Assembly (NCBI GenBank): GCA_041396885.1
Contig: JAWKXS010000006.1
Location: 60,655 to 124,654 of the forward strand
From: Blastomonas sp.
GTDB taxonomy: Bacteria > Pseudomonadota > Alphaproteobacteria > Sphingomonadales > Sphingomonadaceae
Direction: 5' to 3'
DNA: 64,000 nt
Shown: one piece after another, positions 102 to 10,354 of the stretch
Layout of the letters: every line of letters begins with the position of its first letter
Position numbering within the stretch: the stretch's first letter is position 1
Position numbers and translations under genes: made by a program
Notes under the pieces: generated by a model
Told to the model about the DNA's origin: nothing
Database searches by the model: none
The model's input: the letters and a program-made list of their open reading frames with translations, nothing else

Positions 102-120
102 GGTAGTGGGTCAGTTTGAA
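102..120. repeat. Terminal inverted repeat GGTAGTGGGTCAGTTTGAA at the transposase-distal end
   Basis: It is the perfect 19/19 reverse complement of 2849-2867. It begins GGTAGTG, which fits the GGnnnTG termini of the IS1 family. The transposase stop codon (111-113) lies inside it. Confidence 0.85.
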
Positions 121-1004
121 TTAGATTTCTTTTTGTAGGGTCCGCGCGCCTTCGGTTCGGCCTCTTCCTCGGCCGCTTCGACCAAGGCCACAATATCGCT
201 CACTTCCCAAAGCTTGTCCGACACGCCAGCGGCCATTGCGGGCGACATGCGCAACTTCCCGTGAACGCGGACGAAATTATAATACATCATGTGGAGCGCT
301 ACGGCGTGGGCATGGTTCTCGACTTTCTTGCTAAAGCCGTTTGTCAACCGCGTGAAGCGACGCATGTGCATCCGCATCGTGAGATTGTTGCGCTCGACAT
401 AAGACGTGCTAACATGACCTGCGTCAGGATTGCCTTCCACGCGCCGCTTGCGCGTGCCCGTACATTCAGCAGGACTGTAACGAACCTCGCTCGTTTTGCC
501 GCCCTCTGAGCCGTAGAGCTTAACAAGCTGCGCGTAGTCCACGTCGCAACCAAAAGCGCCCTCAACCGCTTCAAGATAGGCACGGTGCCCGTCGCTGGTT
601 AGCTGTACGCGATTAGCCAAGCGTGCAGCCAGATCGTCCATGAACCACATGGCGTATTCAGCGTCGCGACCGCCAACCAAGTAGGACAGGATCATCTTGC
701 TGTCGGCGTCGATGGCCGTCCAAGTCCAAGTGTCCCCAGCGGCTTCCGGAGCGGACTTAGCGGTCGCGACATTCTTCTGCTTGGCATAGGTGAACGACCA
801 GATTTCATCGACCTGCACGCGCGCCGCTTCGACGTTGCGCACGTTGGCATCGTGATAGGCAGCGCAAGCCTTGCCCGCGTCGATCAGCAGCTTGGCAACA
901 GTGTTCTTGCTAGCACCCGTCAGCCGCGTGATCGCACGGATGCTCTGCCCTTCACAAAGAAGGTGGAGGATGCGGGCGCGATCGTCGTTCGAGAGCCTGT
1001 TCAT
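111..1004 (-). CDS. DDE transposase, IS1-family-like single ORF (IS1595 family is the alternative)
   Basis: The N-terminal HTH is SIRAITRLTGASKNTVAKLL. DDE-region motifs are VDEIWSF, AIDADSK and TSDGHRAY. YVERNNLTMRMHMRRFTRLTNGFSKK resembles the IS1 InsB segment [25 protein letters not shown]. Confidence 0.85.
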   Translation of the reverse strand: MNRLSNDDRARILHLLCEGQSIRAITRLTGASKNTVAKLLIDAGKACAAYHDANVRNVEAARVQVDEIWSFTYAKQKNVATAKSAPEAAGDTWTWTAIDADSKMILSYLVGGRDAEYAMWFMDDLAARLANRVQLTSDGHRAYLEAVEGAFGCDVDYAQLVKLYGSEGGKTSEVRYSPAECTGTRKRRVEGNPDAGHVSTSYVERNNLTMRMHMRRFTRLTNGFSKKVENHAHAVALHMMYYNFVRVHGKLRMSPAMAAGVSDKLWEVSDIVALVEAAEEEAEPKARGPYKKKSNSN

Positions 1005-1011
1005 AGGCCCT

Positions 1012-1041
1012 TTTATAATGACCCTTATGCTTGAGTGTCAA
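1012..1041 (-). promoter_or_regulatory. Putative sigma70-type promoter for the transposase
   Basis: The minus strand reads TTGACA (1041-1036), an 18-nt spacer, then TATAAA (1017-1012), just upstream of the ATG at 1004. Confidence 0.4.
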
Positions 1042-1220
1042 GCACGAAGGGTCAGTTTGGAAACGGCCTCTTCAAAGCCTGCCGCGTAGCGGCGGATCAC
1101 TTCTTCCGCCACCGCGCGGGGATTTGCTCCTACATCACGACGAGGGAAGACCTGAGCGACAATATCGGCATCGCTCACCCTAGCGACTGTGCTTTCTGGT
1201 GCATCTTGCCTCTTGATCAT
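1038..1220 (-). CDS. Hypothetical 60-aa protein, third passenger gene
   Basis: Its ATG overlaps the upstream gene's stop codon as ATGA (1217-1220). I recognise no motif, so coding status is uncertain. Confidence 0.4.
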   Translation of the reverse strand: MIKRQDAPESTVARVSDADIVAQVFPRRDVGANPRAVAEEVIRRYAAGFEEAVSKLTLRA

Positions 1221-2503
1221 CGCCGTTGCTCCGTTGCCAATTTTTGTCGAACAAAAAATCTCCCGTTAAGTTCCGACGGGAAATAATGCTTTCTTTGAAT
1301 CCAGACGAAACCCTCAGATTTGGAGATTACCGCCACATCAACCTCACCGCCGACCGTCTCCTGCATCCTACTGACCTTACGCTTTAAAGACGTAACTTCG
1401 ACTAGCGACGTCGCAAGCGTAGCCAATTCTTGCTTGGGCATGGATCGTATCATATCTCTGATGGGGTTACTAGAGCTTGTTTTAATCTTTTCATCCGCCT
1501 TATCTTTTAAATCTGCGACAATTTTCTTGAGTGTTCCTTCGAACGCATTAATTGCCCTTCCCTTTTCATCATCAGAATTTGTAAATGCACCAAATAGCAT
1601 GTCGGTAGTTGTACGTATTGAAGACTCGATCAGCTCTTCGAAATAATCCCTGAGGTAGGGATCAACTCCATCAAGGAAACTGCGGATCATATCATCCTGG
1701 GCAAAGCCCAAAATTTCAGCTTCCGGGCCAGAGCGCTTGATGTCCACCGCTGGCTCGGCGTGCCATTTCAATTTTCCGTCGATTATCCCATCAGTTTCGA
1801 ACGAAATAAGCGTCGGAAGCATTTCCCTTTGACCAAAACCAGCAATAACAATACCAGTGCGACTTCCGGATAGCTCGTCCTTTGCGAGCAGATAACCAGC
1901 TAGCTTGTGCAAGAGTTCCCTTGTAGCCTTGTTCGGGTAGTGGTGCTCGAAATGACGGTCTATCAATATGTCCACGACACCCGTGTAACCTGTCGGAAGC
2001 ACAACTCTATTGAATCCGTTCGCGAATGAAGCACGCTGTAGCTTGGTGATCTCGGCACGGATCGCAGTCTGTGCCATGCCGTTGATTTTACTTTTGAGGA
2101 ACTTACCATCATCCCGAATGCGACGAATTAGCGCTGACTCGATATCTTGCGACAGTTCGGAAAAGCGATCAGCCAGACAGAAAACAATATTCTTCCTGCT
2201 CTCTTCTTCGGAAAATGTGATTGTCTTCAAATACTCTTTGAAGTGATCGACATACTCCCCAATATAGTCAAATTTCAAATCACCAATTGAACGCCTATAC
2301 TCTTTTATTAGAGGCTCATAAGGCACGCCCATAAAATCTAAGCGGCCATAGACCATTATACCGACCGGCTCGCAGCTACTCAGCTCGAATATTTTATTTA
2401 CTGTATTGTAAATTTTGATGTTCGGCGGTCGACCAATCGTAACAGCGCTATCTGCCGCCAACGCGACAGCCATCTTGTTGAGTATGGCGATCTCGGCTGT
2501 CAT
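1217..2503 (-). CDS. HslV/proteasome-beta-like Ntn-hydrolase family protein, atypically long at 428 aa
   Basis: I start it at ATG 2503, which forms an ATGA overlap with the upstream stop. The product begins M-TAEIAILNKMAVALAADSAVTIG, giving Thr1 and Asp17, with NKIF Lys at 36. GIVIAGFGQREMLPTLISFETDG and VGGEVDVAVISKSEGFVWI resemble proteasome-fold strands. G+C is visibly lower than in the flanks. Confidence 0.6.
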   Translation of the reverse strand: MTAEIAILNKMAVALAADSAVTIGRPPNIKIYNTVNKIFELSSCEPVGIMVYGRLDFMGVPYEPLIKEYRRSIGDLKFDYIGEYVDHFKEYLKTITFSEEESRKNIVFCLADRFSELSQDIESALIRRIRDDGKFLKSKINGMAQTAIRAEITKLQRASFANGFNRVVLPTGYTGVVDILIDRHFEHHYPNKATRELLHKLAGYLLAKDELSGSRTGIVIAGFGQREMLPTLISFETDGIIDGKLKWHAEPAVDIKRSGPEAEILGFAQDDMIRSFLDGVDPYLRDYFEELIESSIRTTTDMLFGAFTNSDDEKGRAINAFEGTLKKIVADLKDKADEKIKTSSSNPIRDMIRSMPKQELATLATSLVEVTSLKRKVSRMQETVGGEVDVAVISKSEGFVWIQRKHYFPSELNGRFFVRQKLATEQRR

Positions 2504-2751
2504 TTTTTCCACCGTTTTTCGGCAGCAGCTCGGGCGATCTCACTACGCCGTTCGGGAGATAGCTTCGCGGCTCGGGCCCGTCCGCCTTTGAGGCCACCCC
2601 TACGCCCGAGCAGTACGGCAGCGAGATCGCGGCCATCCTCGGTAGTGATCCGGTCTTCTATCTCACCAGTCGCAATATCAGCCACCAGCTTCGCAAGCTG
2701 GTTGGCATCGCGTGGACGCGGCAGTCGCTTTGACTCTGACATATTCCCCAT
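2500..2751 (-). CDS. Small basic protein with a KGG/ARAxxLSPERRSEIA C-terminal motif, first passenger gene
   Basis: The C-terminus is LGRRGGLKGGRARAAKLSPERRSEIARAAAEKRWKK. I trimmed the start to the internal ATG (MGNMSESK...) because the longer ORF would begin inside the IR. The start is uncertain; 2742 is an alternative. Confidence 0.55.
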   Translation of the reverse strand: MGNMSESKRLPRPRDANQLAKLVADIATGEIEDRITTEDGRDLAAVLLGRRGGLKGGRARAAKLSPERRSEIARAAAEKRWKK

Positions 2752-2848: not shown

Positions 2849-2867
2849 TTCAAACTGACCCACTACC
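2849..2867. repeat. Terminal inverted repeat TTCAAACTGACCCACTACC at the passenger-proximal end
   Basis: It is the perfect reverse complement of 102-120. Confidence 0.85.
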
Positions 2868-2905: not shown

Positions 2906-4183
2906 TCAGCCGGGGGTTAGCTCGCTCAGGCCGCCGGTATAGGGCAACAGCGCGTCGGGCACCCGCACCGAACCATCGGCACGCTGGTAGTTCTCGATAA
3001 TGGCAACCAGCGTCCGTCCGATGGCAAGCCCTGAACCATTGAGCGTATGGAGGAATTCCGTGCCTTTAGGCTCGCCTTCGGGGCGATAGCGCGCCTGCAT
3101 CCGCCGGGCCTGGTAATCGCCGCAATTGGAAATGCTCGAAATCTCGCGATAGGCGCCTTGCCCCGGCAGCCACACCTCCAGATCGAATGTCTTGCGAGAC
3201 GCCTGGCCCATATCGCCCGCGCACAGCAGCATCTTGCGATAGGGCAGCCCGAGCGCCTGCAGGATCGCTTCAGCATCGGCCACCATCTTCTGATGCGCAG
3301 CCTCGGACTGGTCGGGCCGTGCAATGGTGACCAGTTCCACCTTTTCAAACTGGTGCTGGCGGATCAGGCCGCGCGTATCGCGCCCCGCCGCTCCTGCCTC
3401 CGAGCGGAAACAGGGGGTCAGCGCCGTCAGCCTGATCGGCAGTTCGTGCGATGCCAGAATCTGCTCGCGCACGGTGTTGGTAAGGCTCACCTCGGAAGTC
3501 GAAATCAGCCAGCGGCCATCGGTCGTCTGAAACAGGTCTTCGGCAAATTTGGGGAGTTGCCCAACGCCGAACACCGCCTCATCGCGTACCAGATAGGGCG
3601 TCGCGCATTCGGTATATCCAGCCGCCACCTGCTGATCGAGCATGAATTGCCCCAGCGCCCGGTTGAGCCGGGCCATTGCCCCGCGCAACAGGGTAAAGCG
3701 TGCGCCGGAGAGCTTTGCCCCGGTCTCGAAATCCATGCCCAGTGCCGGGCCGATATCGGCATGTTCGCGTGGTTCGAAATCAAAACTGCCCGGTTCTCCC
3801 CAGCGCGACACCTCGACATTGCCGGACTCATCCGCGCCATCGGGAACATCCTCCGCCGGCAGGTTAGGCAAGGCCGCCAGCCGGTCGTTCAGTTGCCCGG
3901 CTGCGTTGCCGCTCTTGTCCTCCAGCTCGGCAAGGCTGGTCTTCAGCGTGGCGACTTCGGCCTTCAGCGCCTCTGCACCGTCCTTGTCGCCGCTGGCCAT
4001 CGCCTGCCCGATCAGCTTCGAGGCTTCGTTGCGCCGCGCCTGTGCCTGCTGCATTGCAGTGGCGATTTCGCGCCTTTCCGCATCCAGTGCGATCAACTCA
4101 GCAGATTGCGGCTCCAGCCCCCGGCGCGCCAGTGCGGCATCGAAAGCGGTGGCATTTTCGCGGATGAATTTGATGTCGTGCAT
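2906..4183 (-). CDS. serS: Seryl-tRNA synthetase
   Basis: Full-length 425 aa. It has the N-terminal coiled-coil arm [15 protein letters not shown] and class II core motifs ([33 protein letters not shown]). Confidence 0.95.
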
Positions 4184-4239
4184 GGCCGAGCGCTATGCCG
4201 CGACCGACCGCTGCCTGCAAGTATCGGCTGATGTCCGGA

Positions 4240-4277
4240 CAAAAATAAAGGGCGACGTGGGTTGAACGCCGCCCTTT
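4240..4277 (-). terminator. Rho-independent terminator after the Ser-rich protein gene
   Basis: The minus strand reads AAAGGGCGGCG-ttcaaccca-CGTCGCCCTTT, an 11-bp stem with one G-U pair. It is followed by ATTTTTGT. Confidence 0.65.
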
Positions 4278-4324
4278 CAGTGTGGCCGGATACGGAGGTT
4301 CCGGCCCTGTTATTGGCAATGCTG

Positions 4325-5815
4325 TTATGTGACGTCTTCGCCCTGCTTTTTCTTGGCGAGGCGACGGCGCGCGGCCAGGGCTGCTGCACCAGCGCCGAAC
4401 AGCAGGACGATCGGCGGTGCCGGAACCGGGGTGCCGCCCGACGATCCGGTGCTGCCGCCGCCGGTGGAGCCGGTCGAGCCGCCGCTGCTGGACGAGGAGC
4501 CGCTGGACGAGCTGCTGCTCGAGGAACTGCTAGACGAAGAGCTGGAACCGCTCGAACCGCTGCTGCCGGTCGAGGTGCTGCCAAAGCTCGACGAACCGGT
4601 TGCGCCCGAAGAGGTCGCGCCAGAGGACGTGCCGCCCGACGATCCGCTGCTCGACGAAGACGAAGAGCTGGAAGAACTGGACGAGCTTGAAGACGATCCC
4701 GAAGAACCACTCGACCCCGACGAACCGCTGGAACCACTCGATCCGCTGGAACCCGACGAACCGCTCGATCCGGTGGAACCGGTCGAGCCATAGCTGGAGG
4801 AGCCGTAGCTGCTCGAACCATAGCTCGACGAGCCATAGCTGCTCGATCCGTAGCTGCTCGATCCGTAGCTGGAGGAACCATAGCTCGATGATCCATGGCT
4901 GCTGGAGCCATGGCCGGGCTTTCCGGGCCTGCCGCCGTTGGAACCGCCATTCGATCCGCCGCTGCTGCCCGATGAGGACGAGCTGGAGCTGGACGAACTG
5001 GAAGAGGAGGACGAGCTGGACGAACTGCTCGACGAGGATGACGAAACATTGCCCGATGACGTTGAGACGTTGCCCGACGAAGAGGAGACGTTACCCGAAG
5101 ACGACGAGACATTGCCCGAGGAGGTGCTGACACCGCCGGTCGAGGTCGAAACGCCACCCGTTGATGTGCTCACGCCACCCGTCGAGGTGGAAACGCCGCC
5201 CGTGGAGGTCGAAGTCGAAACGCCGCCGGTCGAGGTGCTGACCCCGCCCGATGTGCTCGACGTGCTCGAAGAACCGCCGGTCGATGTGCTGGAAAAGCCG
5301 CCGGTCGAGGTGCTGGACGAACCGCCCGTGCTGCTGAAACCGCCGGTCGAAGTGCTGGTCGAGCCGGTGCTGGTGGACGAAATAACCACGCTGCCGCCGC
5401 TGCTGCCGCCACCGCCGAAGAAACCGCCAAAGAAGCCGCCTCCGAAACCGCCGCCAAAGCCGCCGCTACCGCCAACGACAACGGGGATCGATCCGCCGGA
5501 TACAAAGCCCTGGGGCTGTGGTGCCGGGGGAAGCGGGGGCGGAAGCGGGATGGGAATCGGTGCAGCCTGCGTGGCGACCGTCACCACCGATGGGGTGCAG
5601 GTCGACGTCGTGGTCGTGCGGACTACCTTGCGGACACGCTTCACCTTACGGGCGGGCTCGCCCCGGGCGATCTGCCTGCCGCGAACCTTGGTCTTCGATT
5701 TCTGGACCGAAACCTGGGCGGGCGGGGTATCTGCAACATGAACCGCGCCGCCGCCAATCAGGGCGCCGCCGCAGGTGCAGGCACAAAGTTTCGCCAGAGC
5801 CATCCGTACTGACAT
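4325..5815 (-). CDS. Ser/Gly/Thr-rich low-complexity repeat protein with a PEP-CTERM-like C-terminal anchor
   Basis: 496 aa. It has a hydrophobic N-terminus, a basic block, a Pro-rich linker and a GGF block. Repeat units are GGVSTST, SGNVSSS and GSSSY. The C-terminus is VPAPPIVLLFGAGAAALAARRRLAKKK. Confidence 0.7.
   Translation of the reverse strand: MSVRMALAKLCACTCGGALIGGGAVHVADTPPAQVSVQKSKTKVRGRQIARGEPARKVKRVRKVVRTTTTSTCTPSVVTVATQAAPIPIPLPPPLPPAPQPQGFVSGGSIPVVVGGSGGFGGGFGGGFFGGFFGGGGSSGGSVVISSTSTGSTSTSTGGFSSTGGSSSTSTGGFSSTSTGGSSSTSSTSGGVSTSTGGVSTSTSTGGVSTSTGGVSTSTGGVSTSTGGVSTSSGNVSSSSGNVSSSSGNVSTSSGNVSSSSSSSSSSSSSSSSSSSSSSSSSGSSGGSNGGSNGGRPGKPGHGSSSHGSSSYGSSSYGSSSYGSSSYGSSSYGSSSYGSSSYGSTGSTGSSGSSGSSGSSGSSGSSGSSGSSGSSSSSSSSSSSSSSSSSGSSGGTSSGATSSGATGSSSFGSTSTGSSGSSGSSSSSSSSSSSSSSSGSSSSSGGSTGSTGGGSTGSSGGTPVPAPPIVLLFGAGAAALAARRRLAKKKQGEDVT
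4410..5530 (-). repeat. In-frame coding tandem repeats with 9-, 15- and 21-bp periods plus poly-Ser tracts
   Basis: A 15-bp unit (GSSSY/H) is repeated about 9 times around 4788-4912. 21-bp units lie around 5040-5260 and a 9-bp GSS unit around 4690-4785. Ser codon usage is mixed. Confidence 0.8.
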
Positions 5816-6240
5816 AATCCGATACTCTCTTCAGCCTTGGGAAGCCGTGGAGCTTGTCGGATCAAGTCCTTTTGCCCGCTCCACTCACTTCCGGATATGG
5901 CCAACAAGGCAGAAGAAATCGTTAATCTCAATCACGTTAACCCTGTTTCCAGCCGCCTCCATACGGAAAGTTACGCATATCCGGGCCGTGTCTGGGTTAA
6001 TGTCCCGATTTGGAACCGAATTGGGGCAGGAATGTTAACGATGGGGCCTCCTGGCCCGCACCCATGCCTTCCAGATGCGCAATTCGCTTCAGCAATAGCG
6101 CTTCAGTGAAAAAGCAAGCACAAAATTTGCGCTTTCCCGCAGTATTGCAACTTGTATGCGCAACTTAGCATGGCTATAGGCCGCCGCAATCACGGCCTGT
6201 TCTGAAGCATATCGGACCTGCCGTCTTGAATTCGGAGAGC

Positions 6241-6708
6241 ATGATGGCGTCCCTTCCGACGGCTGAATCCAATATAGACGTGCTGGACAAGGCACGTCGC
6301 GCGCTCGAAACCGATTACACCCCTTCCGCTGACGAGGAATATATGAATTCCCGGCAGCTGGACTATTTCCGCGACCTGCTTGTAGAATGGAAGCGCTCCA
6401 TCCTGAGTGCATCCAGAGGCACGTTGCAGCAGTTGCAGGATGGTCCGATGCGCGAGCCCGATCTCAATGATCGTGCGTCGAGCGAAACGGACTGGGGAAT
6501 CGAGCTGCGTACCCGCGACCGGCAGCGCAAGCTGATCACCAAGATCGATTCCGCCCTGCGGCGCATCGATGAGGGCGAATATGGCTATTGCGAGGTTACC
6601 GGCGAGCCCATCGGGCTGGGTCGTTTGATCGCGCGTCCGATCGCGACGATGACGGTCGAGGCGCAGGAACAGCATGAGCGCCGCGAAAAGGTTTCCCGCG
6701 ACGATTGA
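6241..6708 (+). CDS. dksA: RNA polymerase-binding transcription factor DksA
   Basis: It has the DxxDxA tip (DLNDRA) and the motif GEYGYCEVTGEPIGLGRLIARPIATMTVEAQ. I placed the start at the ATG after GGAGAG rather than the TTG at 6226. Confidence 0.9.
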   Translation: MMASLPTAESNIDVLDKARRALETDYTPSADEEYMNSRQLDYFRDLLVEWKRSILSASRGTLQQLQDGPMREPDLNDRASSETDWGIELRTRDRQRKLITKIDSALRRIDEGEYGYCEVTGEPIGLGRLIARPIATMTVEAQEQHERREKVSRDD

Positions 6709-6804
6709 ACCGCTCGCTTCGGCTTGCCGGTTAACCATTTGGCGACACTTCGCTTCTATACCATCAGCCTGATCTGATCACGGGCTGTATGGATCTTTTT
6801 TGAC

Positions 6805-7194
6805 ATGATTGAACCGGACAAACTGACCGGAACACCATTGGATGACGCGGATGCGGGCAATCGTGCGCGGGAGCGCGACAGCCTGTTCCTGCTCACCGAA
6901 ATCTCGCTGGATGGTGACAGCCAGACGTACAAGGCGCGCGTCCGCAATCTTTCCGAAGGCGGCATGATGGTCGAATGCGACATGCACGCCGCAAAGGATC
7001 AGGGCCTGTCAGCCGATCTTCGCAACATCGGCAATGTCAGGGGCCGGATCGCCTGGGCCAAGCCCGGCCGCTTCGGCATCGCCTTTGACACGCCCATCGA
7101 TCCCAAGCTGGCGCGCAAGCCGGTGACCGGTGGCCAGCATGAACCGCGCTATACGCGAACGATCATTACCGGTCGCACGTACCGCCCGCGCTGA
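6805..7194 (+). CDS. PilZ domain protein
   Basis: RxxxR (RARER) and D/NxSxxG (NLSEGG) motifs are at typical spacing. Confidence 0.8.
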   Translation: MIEPDKLTGTPLDDADAGNRARERDSLFLLTEISLDGDSQTYKARVRNLSEGGMMVECDMHAAKDQGLSADLRNIGNVRGRIAWAKPGRFGIAFDTPIDPKLARKPVTGGQHEPRYTRTIITGRTYRPR

Positions 7195-7206
7195 TCGCAG
7201 CTCAGG

Positions 7207-8079
7207 TCATTTGCGGGCCGGATAAAGCTGATCGGGTCCGGGGAAAGTGCGCGCGCGCACCTCTGTCGCATAATCGACAACAGCCTTTTCAATGGTTTCG
7301 GCCAGCGCTTCATAGCGCTTCACGAACCGCGGCACCCGCTCGAACATGCCCAGCAGATCCTCGGTCACCAGAACCTGGCCGTCGCACTGCGCTGAAGCAC
7401 CGATGCCGATAGTCGGACAGCCAACCGCCCCGGTAATGGCAATGGCGATTTCCTCCACCACCCCCTCGATCACGATGGCAAAGGCACCCGCCTCATCCAG
7501 AGCGACTGCATCGCTCCGGATTTTCGCCGCCTCGGCATCGCTGCGCCCCCGCGCCGCATAGCCGCCCAGCGCGTTGACCGCCTGGGGGGTCAGGCCGACA
7601 TGCCCCATGACCGGAATGCCGCGCTCGGACAGGAATCTGACGGTTGGCGCCATCGCCTGACCACCCTCCAGCTTCACCGCAGCGGCACCCGTCTCCTTCA
7701 GGATGCGCGATGCGCTCGCAAATGCCAGTTCGGGCGATGCCTCATAGCTGCCGAACGGCATATCGACCACGACAACGCTGTGATAGCTGCCCCGGACCAC
7801 CGCTGCGCCATGCGCGCACATCATCTCCAGCGTCACCGGAATGGTCGATGGCAGGCCATAGATGACCTGGCCCAGCGAATCGCCGACCAGCAGGACATCG
7901 CAATGCGGATCGAGAATCTGTGCCTGTCGCGCGGTATAGGCGGTCAGCATCACAATCGGCTCGGCCGTCTTGCCGTCCTCCTTGCGCCGCCGGATGGCCG
8001 GTGCGGTAAGACGCTTCATCGGTGCCGGTGTCGGATTTGCGCGGCTGGTCGATGTATCGAGCGTAAAGGTCGTGGACAT
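7207..8079 (-). CDS. panB: 3-methyl-2-oxobutanoate hydroxymethyltransferase
   Basis: Motifs are [29 protein letters not shown] and KLEGG. I trimmed the start to MSTTFTL (ATG at 8079). Confidence 0.9.
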
Positions 8080-8187
8080 GATTTCCCCAAATAATCTGCT
8101 GCACGGCGCGCTTGCAACGCCATGCATTTTCGTGCGTAAACAATGCTGACAACAGCATAGCCCCCCAATCCGACAGGCAAAGCGCAA

Positions 8188-9255
8188 ATGTTGCGGACGA
8201 TTATCCTTGCAGGCGTGTTACTGCTTGCCGCCATCACCCTGGCGAGCATGATCCCCAGCTATCGCTGGTGGCTGCGCATATGGGATTTTCCGAGACTGGC
8301 CGTCTTGGCGCTGGCCGCTGTCCTGCTGGTTGCATCGCTGGCCAGCCTCAGCGGACACAGCCGCCTGCTTGCCGCGCTGGCCATGGCGGCGGTGGTCCTG
8401 TGGCAGGGCTGGCGAATATATCCCTATACTCCGCTCGCCAGCAGCGAAGTTGCCATTGCGCTGCCCGACCGGACCAACTGCATCAAGGCGATGTCTTTCA
8501 ATGTCCTGCAGACCAATCGCAATTTCGATGCGACGATACGCGCCATCGAGGCTGAGAATCCGGACATATTGCTGTTGCTGGAAACCGACAGCAAATGGAC
8601 CGAAGCGCTCGAACCCGTCACGTCACGCTATCCACACCGTCTGCTCGCACCGCTGGACAATCTCTATGGCCTCGCCTTTTACACACGGCTGGATATGGCG
8701 GCTGGCGAGGTGCGTTACCTTGTCGATGATGAAACGCCGTCGGTCGCGGCCGAACTTAGCACAGGCGGCAGCGCGCAATTTCTGTTTCTCGGCCTTCATC
8801 CGCGTCCACCGCGACCGGGGGAGGACACGGAGCAGCGCGATGCGGAAATCGCGATAGCCGCGCGCCAGGCCGCGCGCCAGCCGCAGCCGGTGCTGGCCAT
8901 GGGCGATTTCAACGATGTCGCATGGTCACGCACCTCGCGCCTGTTCAAGCGGATTGGCGGCTATGTCGACCCGCGCATCGGACGCGGCTTCTATGCGACC
9001 TTTCCGGCCCGGCTGCCGGTCTTTCGCTGGCCGCTCGATCATCTGTTCATGACACCTGATTTCACGGTCGCCGAAATGAGAGTCATGGAAAATCTGGGTT
9101 CCGACCATCTGCCAGTCGTGGCAACGCTCTGCCTTGCACCGAAAGTTGCCAAGGTACTCAACGACGCGCCGCCTGCGCCGAACGCCAGCGATGTTCAGGA
9201 AATGCGCGAGACAATCGCCGACGGCAAAGCCAGCGCCCGGGATGACAAGGATTAG
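8188..9255 (+). CDS. Endonuclease/exonuclease/phosphatase (EEP) family membrane protein
   Basis: It has N-terminal TM helices and the motifs [17 protein letters not shown] and GSDHLP. Confidence 0.8.
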
Positions 9256-9271
9256 CTAAACGCCCGTCGCA

Positions 9272-10354
9272 CTATTGGCCGTCAAGCGCCGCGACGGTCT
9301 CGGCCACATTGTCCGAAATCAGGCCATCAACCCCGGCGGCGACAAAGGCCGCAACCTCTCCAGCAAGGTCGCCCGTGCCATTCGCGGCAGCGCCCATGCG
9401 GAAATTGCGCGGCAGATAGCGGTTTTCCCGCCGCAGCGTCCAGATATGCACCTCCAGCCCCAGCGCATGCGCGCGCTCGACCAGTTGCGTGGGCGCACCC
9501 AGATTGCCCTCGTCATCCAGCGCAATCACCAGCGGCTTTTCCGCGCCTATGGCATCGGCATAGCTGGCAATCTCGGCAATGCCCTCCGCGCTGGACACGT
9601 CCGCCCTTGGTCCAGCGGTCGCGCCCCTGGGCACAGCGGCAAGCTGCAACAGGCGCAGCTTTGTCTGGCTGCGGAGCGCCTTCAGATTGGCGATCTCGAA
9701 ACTCTGGATGAACACCGGATCATCGCGGTCCTCATAGCCTGCTTCTTCGCGCAAAATGCGCAGCAATTCGCCCTCAAGCGGCATGCCGATCGATTCGAAA
9801 TAGGATGGATGCTTGGTTTCCGGATAAATGCCGATCACCCTGCCCGTCTCGACCTGCTTCGCCTTGACCAGCTGGATCACCTCCGAAAAGGTGGCAATGG
9901 GATAGAGATCATCGAACGCCATGGCCAGTGGCCGGAATGCTCCCATGGGCTCGCGGGCGCGCAGGGTCTTCAGCTCGGCTAGGGTGAAATCCTCGCTGAA
10001 CCAGCCAGTGACATCCTTGCCATCAATGGTCTTGGTTACCTTGCGGTCGTCAAATTCGGGATGATCGGCAATATCGGTCGTGCCCGACAATTCATGCTCG
10101 TGGCGAACGATGAGAACTCCGTCCCGGGAGATGACCAGATCGGGCTCCACATAATCGGCGCCTTCGTCAATCGCGACCTCATAGGCGGCAAGGGTATGTT
10201 CGGGCCTTGCCCCGCTGGCCCCGCGATGGGCGATGACGAGCGGCCGCCGGGCCTCAGCGCCGGTTTCATGCGCAAGGGCGGGCACCGGCATCAGTGCAGC
10301 GCTGATGATCAGCCCAAATACGGTCAGTCCAGTCCGCAACAGCATTGCACGCAT
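9272..10354 (-). CDS. Glycerophosphodiester phosphodiesterase, periplasmic GlpQ-like
   Basis: It has a signal peptide and the motif VIAHRGASGARPEHTLAAYEVAIDEGADYVEPDLV. Confidence 0.85.
   Translation of the reverse strand: MRAMLLRTGLTVFGLIISAALMPVPALAHETGAEARRPLVIAHRGASGARPEHTLAAYEVAIDEGADYVEPDLVISRDGVLIVRHEHELSGTTDIADHPEFDDRKVTKTIDGKDVTGWFSEDFTLAELKTLRAREPMGAFRPLAMAFDDLYPIATFSEVIQLVKAKQVETGRVIGIYPETKHPSYFESIGMPLEGELLRILREEAGYEDRDDPVFIQSFEIANLKALRSQTKLRLLQLAAVPRGATAGPRADVSSAEGIAEIASYADAIGAEKPLVIALDDEGNLGAPTQLVERAHALGLEVHIWTLRRENRYLPRNFRMGAAANGTGDLAGEVAAFVAAGVDGLISDNVAETVAALDGQ

Follow-up and report, generated by a model that had tools for sequence, protein, structure and literature searches.

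What can a proteasome-type hydrolase do when it travels inside a transposable element with no unfoldase beside it? The question is raised by a gene in a 64,000-nucleotide stretch of Blastomonas sp. DNA (contig JAWKXS010000006.1, positions 60,655 to 124,654; hereafter the window, meaning that whole stretch). An earlier note, made from the letters alone, had described its product as an orphan, double-length N-terminal nucleophile (Ntn) hydrolase resembling HslV and 20S beta subunits, carried as cargo of an insertion sequence (IS). We find that this hydrolase very likely adds a member to the PMI-type proteasome homologs, a group that is catalogued but has no known function, and that together with a small partner gene it constitutes a two-gene cassette, which is a self-contained, horizontally mobile accessory unit.

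A predicted proteasome-beta fold with an invariant active site

The gene lies as follows:

1217–2503, minus strand: proteasome-beta-like Ntn (Thr1) hydrolase, PMI-type, with two helical insertions; ATG start, 428 amino acids (aa)

The open reading frame (ORF) was borne out at the length first reported; an alternative GTG start lies at 2512. Its product is 100% identical to MEZ5710930.1, which GenBank labels 'MAG: hypothetical protein R3E02_16250 [Blastomonas sp.]'. After removal of the initiator methionine the predicted N terminus reads TAEIAILNK..., with Asp17, Lys36 (within NKIF) and Gly47 following. To assess conservation we used 334 family sequences, counting at each position only those that cover it. 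The threonine after the initiator is found in 321 of 321 sequences, and Asp17 and Lys36 are each found in 326 of 326, so that the Thr1/Asp17/Lys triad proposed in the earlier note is present in every relative covering those positions. Position 47 is Gly in 303 and Ala in 23 of 326. Lys36 is the equivalent of Lys33, the two segments aligning as NK-IFEL and KK-LFQI.

The threonine directly follows the start codon in 286 of the 334 sequences. The remainder are for the most part fragments, or else an in-frame M, V or L start stands just before the threonine; their apparent N-terminal extensions are therefore probably miscalled starts, and no propeptide is present. Removal of the methionine by methionine aminopeptidase, predicted from the established specificity of that enzyme, should expose Thr1. 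Conservation is highest over the first 23 residues of the hydrolase, in a family whose overall identity is only ~35%. Conservation extends to positions at which the family departs from the canonical proteasome. The GSG motif with Ser129 is not kept, as had been noticed, and is replaced by GFAQ, of which A268 and Q269 are invariant; the Asp166/Ser169 region is replaced by RETVGG, which is likewise invariant.

Sequence comparison did not connect the family to known proteasome subunits at a significant level. Scans of the hydrolase against Pfam (including Proteasome, PF00227) and NCBIfam returned noise matches only, and a phmmer search against the PDB gave no match. Alignment of the family profile with E. 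coli HslV (from MG1655) in hhalign yielded no alignment, and sequence-level homology could not be demonstrated in this way. When the family profile was compared with the PDB, the top matches were Thermoplasma 20S beta subunits, at a non-significant E value of 0.23. This alignment spans the Thr1 region and the SGGxIDVAVI motif ('tVGGevDvAvIsk' against 'ASGGMIDVAVITR'); within the Blastomonas hydrolase itself, 'ETVGGEVDVAVISK' pairs with 'ASGGMIDVAVITR' of the Thermoplasma subunit.

We therefore rest the case for homology on structure, on the order of the motifs and on a cluster analysis published in 2021. An AlphaFold2 model built with 52 homologues as input reached a predicted local distance difference test score (pLDDT) of 87.2 and a predicted template modelling score (pTM) of 0.84. 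Searched against the PDB with Foldseek, the model gave 29 matches at E ≤ 1e-3, which comprise only Anbu and 20S proteasome subunits, the latter mostly beta. The best match had an E value of 2.4e-5 and a probability of 1.0, with template modelling (TM) scores of ~0.5–0.55 when normalised to the 190–235-residue targets. These alignments cover the whole query, the insertions appearing as gaps. Against the BFVD database, the top match was a phage protein named 'proteasome beta type-2' (E 2e-5, TM 0.67). The HslV/20S-beta-like Ntn fold first suggested from the letters is thus upheld by a significant structural match, whereas the profile searches, against PF00227 as proposed with it and against the PDB, remained below significance. 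From its modelled fold and conserved residues, we predict that the hydrolase is catalytically active and belongs to the proteasome-beta/HslV superfamily (MEROPS T1, Ntn hydrolases).

Two helical insertions that match a catalogued group of proteasome homologs

In the AlphaFold2 model, the additional length resides in two insertions. The first is a four-helix bundle at residues ~95–212 (helices 99–207), which follows core helix H2. The second is a long helical hairpin at ~282–353, placed between H3 (270–278) and H4 (357–377). Two long helical inserts doubling the length had been anticipated at residues 75–215 and 290–385; they exist, but are narrower in the model, at ~95–212 and ~282–353. Core helices H1 (62–73) and H2 (81–93) are present, and the S3–S4 loop is short, with an extension of only ~3 residues. 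The four-helix bundle maps to the 'pore loop' of the 20S particle and the hairpin to the 20S ring–ring contact, which makes a classical stacked-ring, unfoldase-fed particle unlikely. Together, the two insertions would form a cap. Residues 94–212 alone also gave a confident model (pLDDT 91), for which a Foldseek search of the PDB returned generic helical bundles only, with a best E value of 0.22 and no specific domain. Precomputed 'NIT' Pfam tags on two homologues were set aside as probable helical noise. In one homologue (P0097), residues ~54–127 comprise an internal 37-aa tandem duplication (MGVPWETLIKKYRSSIGSESKETIRQYVAHFMGGINT, twice) across H1/H2 of the core.

The same architecture has been described. 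Fuchs, Alva and Lupas catalogued 22 new proteasome homologs (Bioinformatics 2021; PMC8665760), among them the 'Proteasome homologs with Multiple Insertions' (PMI). PMI-3 and PMI-4, represented by OGZ26396.1 and HDY66466.1, respectively, have no propeptide, a long insertion after H1/H2 and another between H3 and H4 (PMC8665760). PMI-4 is the largest PMI cluster and ranges over Proteobacteria, Firmicutes, Actinobacteria, Bacteroidetes, the Planctomycetes–Verrucomicrobia–Chlamydiae (PVC) group, Cyanobacteria, other bacteria, Euryarchaeota and phages (PMC8665760). That survey reported no informative genomic context, co-occurrence or AAA+ partner, and the function of the PMI proteins was given as unknown (PMC8665760).

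The hydrolase family fits PMI-3 and PMI-4 in architecture, being free of a propeptide and carrying insertions at both sites. Its patchy occurrence in all major bacterial phyla, in Euryarchaeota and in phages fits PMI-4 better than PMI-3. From published architecture and distribution, the family is very likely the PMI group, and most likely PMI-4. It is large, with >3,900 matches in a word-indexed search and 6,307 clusters at 50% identity in an exhaustive one, of which 3,676 were found at E ≤ 1e-30. The hydrolase also matches the PHROG family phrog_5990 (function unknown) over its full length (E 3.9e-102). The statement in the earlier note that this is not a described family therefore does not hold.

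A small coupled gene accompanies the hydrolase across the family

Directly downstream of the hydrolase gene lies a short ORF:

1038–1220, minus strand: partner gene, 60 aa, ATGA translationally coupled to the hydrolase gene; matched by phmmer to the partners in loci L001 and L002; a small ORF stands here in 78 of 79 loci

The ATGA overlap joining the two genes reads 'cggcgATGAtcaag'. A second overlap, 'aaaaaATGAcagcc', joins the hydrolase gene to an upstream ORF ending in EKRWKK, so that coupling to a small gene on either side, as originally described, is present in the sequence. We examined 80 genome loci in addition to the window, 79 of which could be evaluated for the partner. A partner was defined as a same-strand ORF of 46–78 aa (median 64) whose start lies within −45 to +60 of the hydrolase stop codon; other genes of ≥200 aa in the same loci (n = 397) served as the control. 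Such an ORF follows the hydrolase gene in 78 of 79 loci and follows 102 of the 397 control genes (26%; Fisher p 1e-37). Partners occur in bacteria, archaea, phages and satellites, from Alphaproteobacteria to methanogens. The upstream gene, by contrast, is found in ~7 of 81 loci only. The conserved unit is therefore a pair and not the trio proposed earlier, of which the downstream member alone proved family-wide.

The partners are variable in sequence and share a simple layout. An N-terminal region that is basic in many of them is followed by an 'aromatic-F-P' motif, a helix start of the form '(D/N)Pxxh(G/A)' and a C-terminal amphipathic helix. Fifty of the ORFs, from across bacterial phyla and archaea, form one family detectable with a hidden Markov model (HMM), which we term type A. 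These have a basic N terminus, the motif x-S-x-x-E-aromatic-x-K/R-x-aromatic-F-P, a charged linker, the motif D-P-x-x-h-G-x-x-L-A and then the amphipathic helix. The window partner belongs to a proteobacterial set, type B, which retains a hydrophobic residue followed by Pro and the amphipathic C-terminal helix; in the window copy this helix starts with N-P. When mapped on a neighbour-joining tree of the hydrolases, all type B partners fall in one half and all type A partners in the other, with 16 loci untyped. The partner is fast-evolving and co-diverges with the hydrolase.

Among four phage and satellite records examined, three have an annotated coding sequence of 55–58 aa after the hydrolase gene, and the fourth, a Stenotrophomonas phage, has an unannotated 46-aa ORF at the same place. 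These phage partners match neither the type A nor the type B HMM. We also considered a Pup- or ubiquitin-like tag and rejected it, the C termini varying in length and sequence, with no GG end and no Pfam match. Being absent from the report of the 2021 survey, the ~60-aa partner appears to be new.

The window copy is carried by an IS1-family element

In the window, the pair lies within a 2,766-bp IS1-family element (102–2867) with 19-bp terminal inverted repeats (IRs) and an 8-bp target duplication. Besides the gene pair, it has the following features:

94–101: target-site duplication GCATATTG, first copy; the 8-mer is identical at both IS ends
102–120, plus strand: terminal inverted repeat GGTAGTGGGTCAGTTTGAA, transposase end; perfect 19-bp inverted copy of 2849–2867
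111–1004, minus strand: IS1-family DDE transposase, 297 aa, single ORF with an N-terminal helix-turn-helix (HTH); PF03400 at E 2.4e-8 (above cut-off)
1049–1068: partial third copy of the IR core (CAAACTGACCC), in the last codons (3′ end) of the partner gene
2500–2742, minus strand: 80-aa basic protein (RPRDANQLAK...GGLKGGRARAAKLSPERRSEIA..RW), ATGA-coupled to the hydrolase gene; an accessory gene of few lineages
2849–2867, minus strand: terminal inverted repeat, cargo end; perfect 19-bp repeat GGTAGTGGGTCAGTTTGAA
2868–2875: second copy of the target-site duplication GCATATTG; lies 30 nt past the stop codon of serS

Because GCATATTG abuts both ends of the IS, we interpret it as the target-site duplication. 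The 20-nt pattern used to search for the IRs is expected to have no match by chance. The repeats enclose four co-directional genes, encoding the 80-aa basic protein, the hydrolase, the 60-aa ORF and the transposase. The transposase also matched HTH_38, and NF033558 at E 4e-17, which is below the NCBI curated cut-off. The third copy of the IR core is oriented like the repeat at 102–120; after it, immediately ahead of the transposase ATG, comes TTGACA-N18-TATAAA. The copy may have remained from an earlier IS end or may bind the transposase; none was found in the Hansschlegelia, Methylobacterium and Litoreibacter elements described below. A scan for promoters and terminators revealed nothing above chance inside the IS.

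At least four other alphaproteobacteria have this cargo-carrying element. In Hansschlegelia (L001), Methylobacterium (L003) and Litoreibacter (L004), the homologous units share its IRs and gene order and are flanked by clean 8-bp duplications (GAGCATTA, CGGCTCCC and CCCACCCT, respectively), which differ in sequence between these three and the window. In a further locus (L007) the transposase and one IR are seen on a truncated contig. Between the window element and these four, the transposases are 63–77% identical, and the hydrolases of the elements are 43–55% identical to one another. It follows that element and cargo have long been associated and move together as a single transposing unit. 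In a Hyphomicrobium metagenome-assembled genome (L010), two identical 2,795-bp copies stand in tandem, 8 nt apart (4465–7259 and 7268–10062), each with 24-nt perfect IRs (GGTAGTGGGCTAGTTTGAAATCTC) and with an IS1595-family transposase just upstream of the pair; the identity of these copies suggests recent activity of the IS1-type element. The Methylobacterium element (5460–9397 of its locus) has an additional passenger at 8395–9324 on the minus strand, encoding an FRG-domain protein (PF08867, E 1.5e-17). IS cargo is thus an apt description for the window, where IRs and target duplications enclose cargo and transposase alike, but it applies to this alphaproteobacterial lineage only, that is, to ~6–7 of 81 loci. 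A literature search on IS1 passenger genes returned nothing useful.

The upstream 80-aa gene is present in the window, L001, L003, L004, L010, L029 and L059 and in no other of the 81 loci. Homologues guided the choice of 2742 as its start, and 2751 is also possible. The shared motif of the protein is KRPRDxNQLAK...GGxKGGxARAxKLSxExRxxIAxxAAxxRW. No Pfam family matches the protein, and phrog_2384 does so only weakly (E 7e-6); a role as a DNA-binding regulator of the element is possible.

Mobility and genomic neighbourhood across the family

Outside this lineage, the family occurs on other kinds of mobile DNA. We identified it in 13 phage or satellite records, including Streptococcus prophages, a Porphyromonas phage, two Stenotrophomonas phages, in which it adjoins lysis genes, and a lambdoid Providencia phage, in which the cassette lies between Q/Dam and the holin gene. 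In seven Streptococcus satellites the cassette invariably occupies the terminal position of the element, behind terS and a regulator; in Javan103 (L081) it is the last gene pair, at 4001–5380, and likewise in the six other Javan satellites. The satellite end is an accessory position that often carries anti-phage systems. Ten plasmids also carry the family, among them rhizobial megaplasmids and a 41-kb Enterococcus faecium plasmid.

Base composition points in the same direction. In 71 of 76 loci the G+C content of the cassette is more than 3 points below that of its flanks, with a median difference of −11.5 points, and it is never more than 3 points above. In the window, the fraction is 0.42–0.50 in the hydrolase gene, 0.55–0.60 in the transposase gene and 0.62–0.66 in serS. 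The low G+C content described in the earlier note is thus confirmed for the gene, while the surrounding value of >60% is reached only outside the element. At one locus (L049), a decayed C-terminal remnant of a second family gene (5062–5823, FVWVNRKHYFQPELNPR) lies directly upstream of the intact gene, which hints at cassette turnover at a single site.

No AAA+ gene and no Pup- or ubiquitin-like gene is present in the window element, and AAA+ is not among the 25 commonest Pfam families of the 142 nearest neighbours at the 80 related loci; the absence of a nearby unfoldase or tag partner noted for the window thus agrees with what is seen at the family level. The nearest neighbours are heterogeneous and mostly housekeeping genes, such as those for ThiC, citrate synthase, NADH dehydrogenase subunits and peptidases. 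A few encode IS1 and IS4 transposases or defence-type candidates (MADS, methyltransferases, HEC-06 and PDC). Neighbourhood enrichment over the 80 loci revealed no recurrent neighbour beyond the hydrolase/partner pair.

The chromosomal neighbours in the window were identified by translation. They are genes for a seryl-tRNA synthetase (2906–4183, minus strand), a DksA/TraR-type zinc-finger protein (6226–6708, plus strand), a PilZ-like protein (6805–7194, plus strand) and PanB (7207–8187, minus strand). Between them, at 4325–5815 on the minus strand, a 496-aa ORF consists almost entirely of Ser/Gly/Thr runs and ends in ...PVPAPPIVLLFGAGAAALAARRRLAKKK, which, judged from the translation only, looks like a PEP-CTERM (exosortase) signal.

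A proposed role as a gated threonine hydrolase in a conflict or addiction module

How might such a pair benefit its carriers? The reading we favour, and to which we give an even chance, is that the cassette encodes an ATPase-independent Thr hydrolase gated by its small partner and serves as a mobile conflict or addiction module. Thr1, exposed by methionine aminopeptidase, would be the nucleophile, and Asp17, Lys36 and Gly47 would complete the active site, with no propeptide needed. The hydrolase would act without an AAA+ partner and always together with the co-translated ~60-aa protein. Cap and partner are the poorly conserved parts of the system while the active-site region is invariant, from which we infer an interface between the two: the partner would bind the variable helical cap and gate access to the active site, either by inhibiting the enzyme or by being its first substrate. 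Were the partner lost or displaced, proteolysis of a conserved cellular or viral target would be unleashed, and the carrier element would gain an addiction benefit, as in toxin–antitoxin (TA) systems, or an exclusion benefit, as in abortive infection. The AT-richness of the cassette and its placement in IS elements, in accessory ('moron') slots of prophages and at satellite ends point to such a conflict or addiction role and not to housekeeping proteostasis.

Several observations weigh against this model. A PADLOC 2.0 scan of the hydrolase gave no significant match to any defence model, and defence models match no more than a handful of the 142 neighbours, a weak association with defence islands. 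The partners have no Pfam match and no recognisable DNA-binding or antitoxin domain. Types A and B align in hhalign only at E 0.018 with a probability of 2.5%, which is not significant evidence of a common origin. The replacement of Ser129, Asp166 and Ser169 (GFAQ, RETVGG) could mean a chemistry other than simple proteolysis, and the strict invariance of the active site is compatible with a housekeeping-type substrate as well. A literature search found no experimental work on PMI proteins; nor did it find a later paper on them or one on proteasome-like defence systems. The evidence is compatible with all three functions raised in the earlier note, namely toxin or addiction module, defence module and maturation protease, and does not choose between them.

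Among the alternatives, a dedicated processing enzyme fares best, although we think it rather unlikely. Here the partner would be the specific substrate of the Thr1 enzyme, which would act on a short motif within it by cleavage or by ligation; the latter has a parallel in connectase, a proteasome homolog with sequence-specific protein ligase activity (PMC8665760). The outcome would be an active peptide or attachment to a target, in other words a mobile system for peptide maturation or protein tagging. The invariable adjacency and co-divergence of the two genes fit this idea, as do the short aromatic-F-P and (D/N)Pxxh(G/A) motifs conserved in otherwise variable partners, the replacement of the canonical Ser129/Asp166/Ser169 and the connectase precedent itself (PMC8665760). 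However, the partner motifs are weak, and the D-P could be a mere helix N-cap; there is no conserved partner terminus and no Pup/ubiquitin-like GG end; and the connectase signature is missing, with H1/H2 present and S3–S4 only ~3 residues longer. So fast-evolving a substrate would also be odd beside an invariant active-site region. The narrower proposal that the enzyme is a connectase-like transpeptidase instead of a degradative protease, acting on the partner through these same two motifs, seems to us improbable. If true, the proteasome fold would here underlie a mobile system for peptide activation or protein tagging, which IS elements, phages and satellites would spread as a weapon or addiction device.

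Somewhat less probable than a processing enzyme is an autonomous, ATP-independent quality-control or stress protease, as proposed for Anbu and BPH. The small partner would then help its assembly or serve as an adaptor, mobility being incidental. The invariance of the active site across bacteria and archaea suggests a universal class of substrates, housekeeping genes are frequent among the neighbours, and ATP-independent roles for orphan proteasome homologs have been discussed by Fuchs et al. (PMC8665760). Such a function is hard to reconcile with the sporadic distribution of the family, its systematically foreign G+C content, its carriage on IS elements, prophages, satellites and plasmids, and the decayed second copy beside an intact one in L049. 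Together with the lack of a conserved chromosomal context, they characterise an accessory cassette of a selfish or conflict type and not core proteostasis.

The cassette might instead serve its carrier directly, processing or degrading the transposase, phage repressors or structural proteins and thereby tuning transposition or phage development. In favour are the long-lived link to one IS1 lineage, with shared IRs and transposases (63–77% identical) that are more similar than their cargo (43–55%), the co-directional arrangement of cassette and transposase gene, between which no terminator was found, and the adjacent lysis or late genes in two phages. We nevertheless consider this doubtful: at ~70 of 81 loci neither a transposase gene nor a phage gene stands beside the cassette, and the carriers (IS1-type IS elements, siphophages, satellites and plasmids) are mutually unrelated. 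Finally, a catalytically dead scaffold (pseudo-protease) comparable to proteasome alpha subunits would account for the loss of GSG and of the Ser129 and Ser169 equivalents and for the lack of a Pfam Proteasome match, but is very improbable given that the post-start Thr, Asp17, Lys36 and Gly47 are (nearly) invariant over ~320 sequences of ~35% identity and that the first 23 residues are the best conserved of all.

Orphan proteasome homologs are among the larger groups of prokaryotic enzymes that have a clear catalytic centre and no known job. The locus described here adds a near-universal partner, as well as a cassette that is a passenger of an apparently active IS1-family element, phages and satellites, and thereby makes their function experimentally approachable. 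With the partner gene, PMI function becomes a two-protein question, of binding, of inhibition or cleavage, and of toxicity with or without the partner. Should the gated conflict or addiction module prove correct, a threonine-protease effector of the proteasome fold would join the known effector types of TA and defence systems, and the locus would illustrate the stable carriage of such a module by an IS.

Comparison with known systems

The closest familiar relative is HslV (ClpQ), which is also bacterial, has the proteasome-beta fold and exposes Thr1 by removal of methionine (MTT... in E. coli HslV; predicted for the present family). HslV has 176 aa and no insertions, forms a double hexamer and depends on the adjacently encoded HslU, whereas the hydrolase has 428 aa, no HslU or other AAA+ gene found alongside and no detectable profile similarity to E. 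coli HslV.

A second comparison is with 20S beta subunits, Anbu and BPH, of which 20S subunits and Anbu provide the best structural matches. The Thermoplasma beta subunit can be aligned with the hydrolase at the C-terminal 'GGxxDVAVI' strand and around Thr1, and Anbu and BPH are likewise without a dedicated unfoldase. The hydrolase differs from all three in having GFAQ and RETVGG in place of GSG/Ser129/Asp166/Ser169, in its insertions at the pore-loop and ring–ring sites, and in belonging to a mobile cassette with a small partner.

Connectase resembles the hydrolase in being compatible with a monomer, independent of an unfoldase and specific by virtue of helical insertions, and it illustrates that the fold can do more than bulk degradation. 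It lacks H1/H2, carries a two-helix S3/S4 insertion and is confined to methanogens; here H1/H2 are kept, the insertions lie elsewhere and S3–S4 is short.

With type II TA systems and protease-based abortive-infection modules, the cassette shares its organisation as two coupled genes, a conserved enzyme with a small, fast-diverging partner, as well as its AT-richness and its mobility on IS elements, prophages, satellites and plasmids. It departs from them in a partner without a known antitoxin or DNA-binding fold, in an enzyme far larger than typical toxins and in the lack of a PADLOC match.

IS elements with passenger genes are reportedly grouped as transporter ISs (tIS), a concept of Siguier and Chandler. 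The window element agrees with IS1-family tIS in its single-ORF IS1-type DDE transposase, in ends that begin with GGT, in the 8-bp target duplication and in passengers placed inside the IRs. Its passengers are a proteasome-homolog module and not resistance, regulator or methylase genes, and the association has persisted while the cargo diverged to 43–55% identity.

PMI-4 and PMI-3, lastly, have in common with the hydrolase family the lack of a propeptide, the Thr1/Asp17/Lys33/Gly47 core, the two insertions, the lack of an AAA+ partner and the patchy spread. To these groups as published, the present family adds a coupled partner of ~60 aa in essentially every locus and carriage by an IS1-family tIS.

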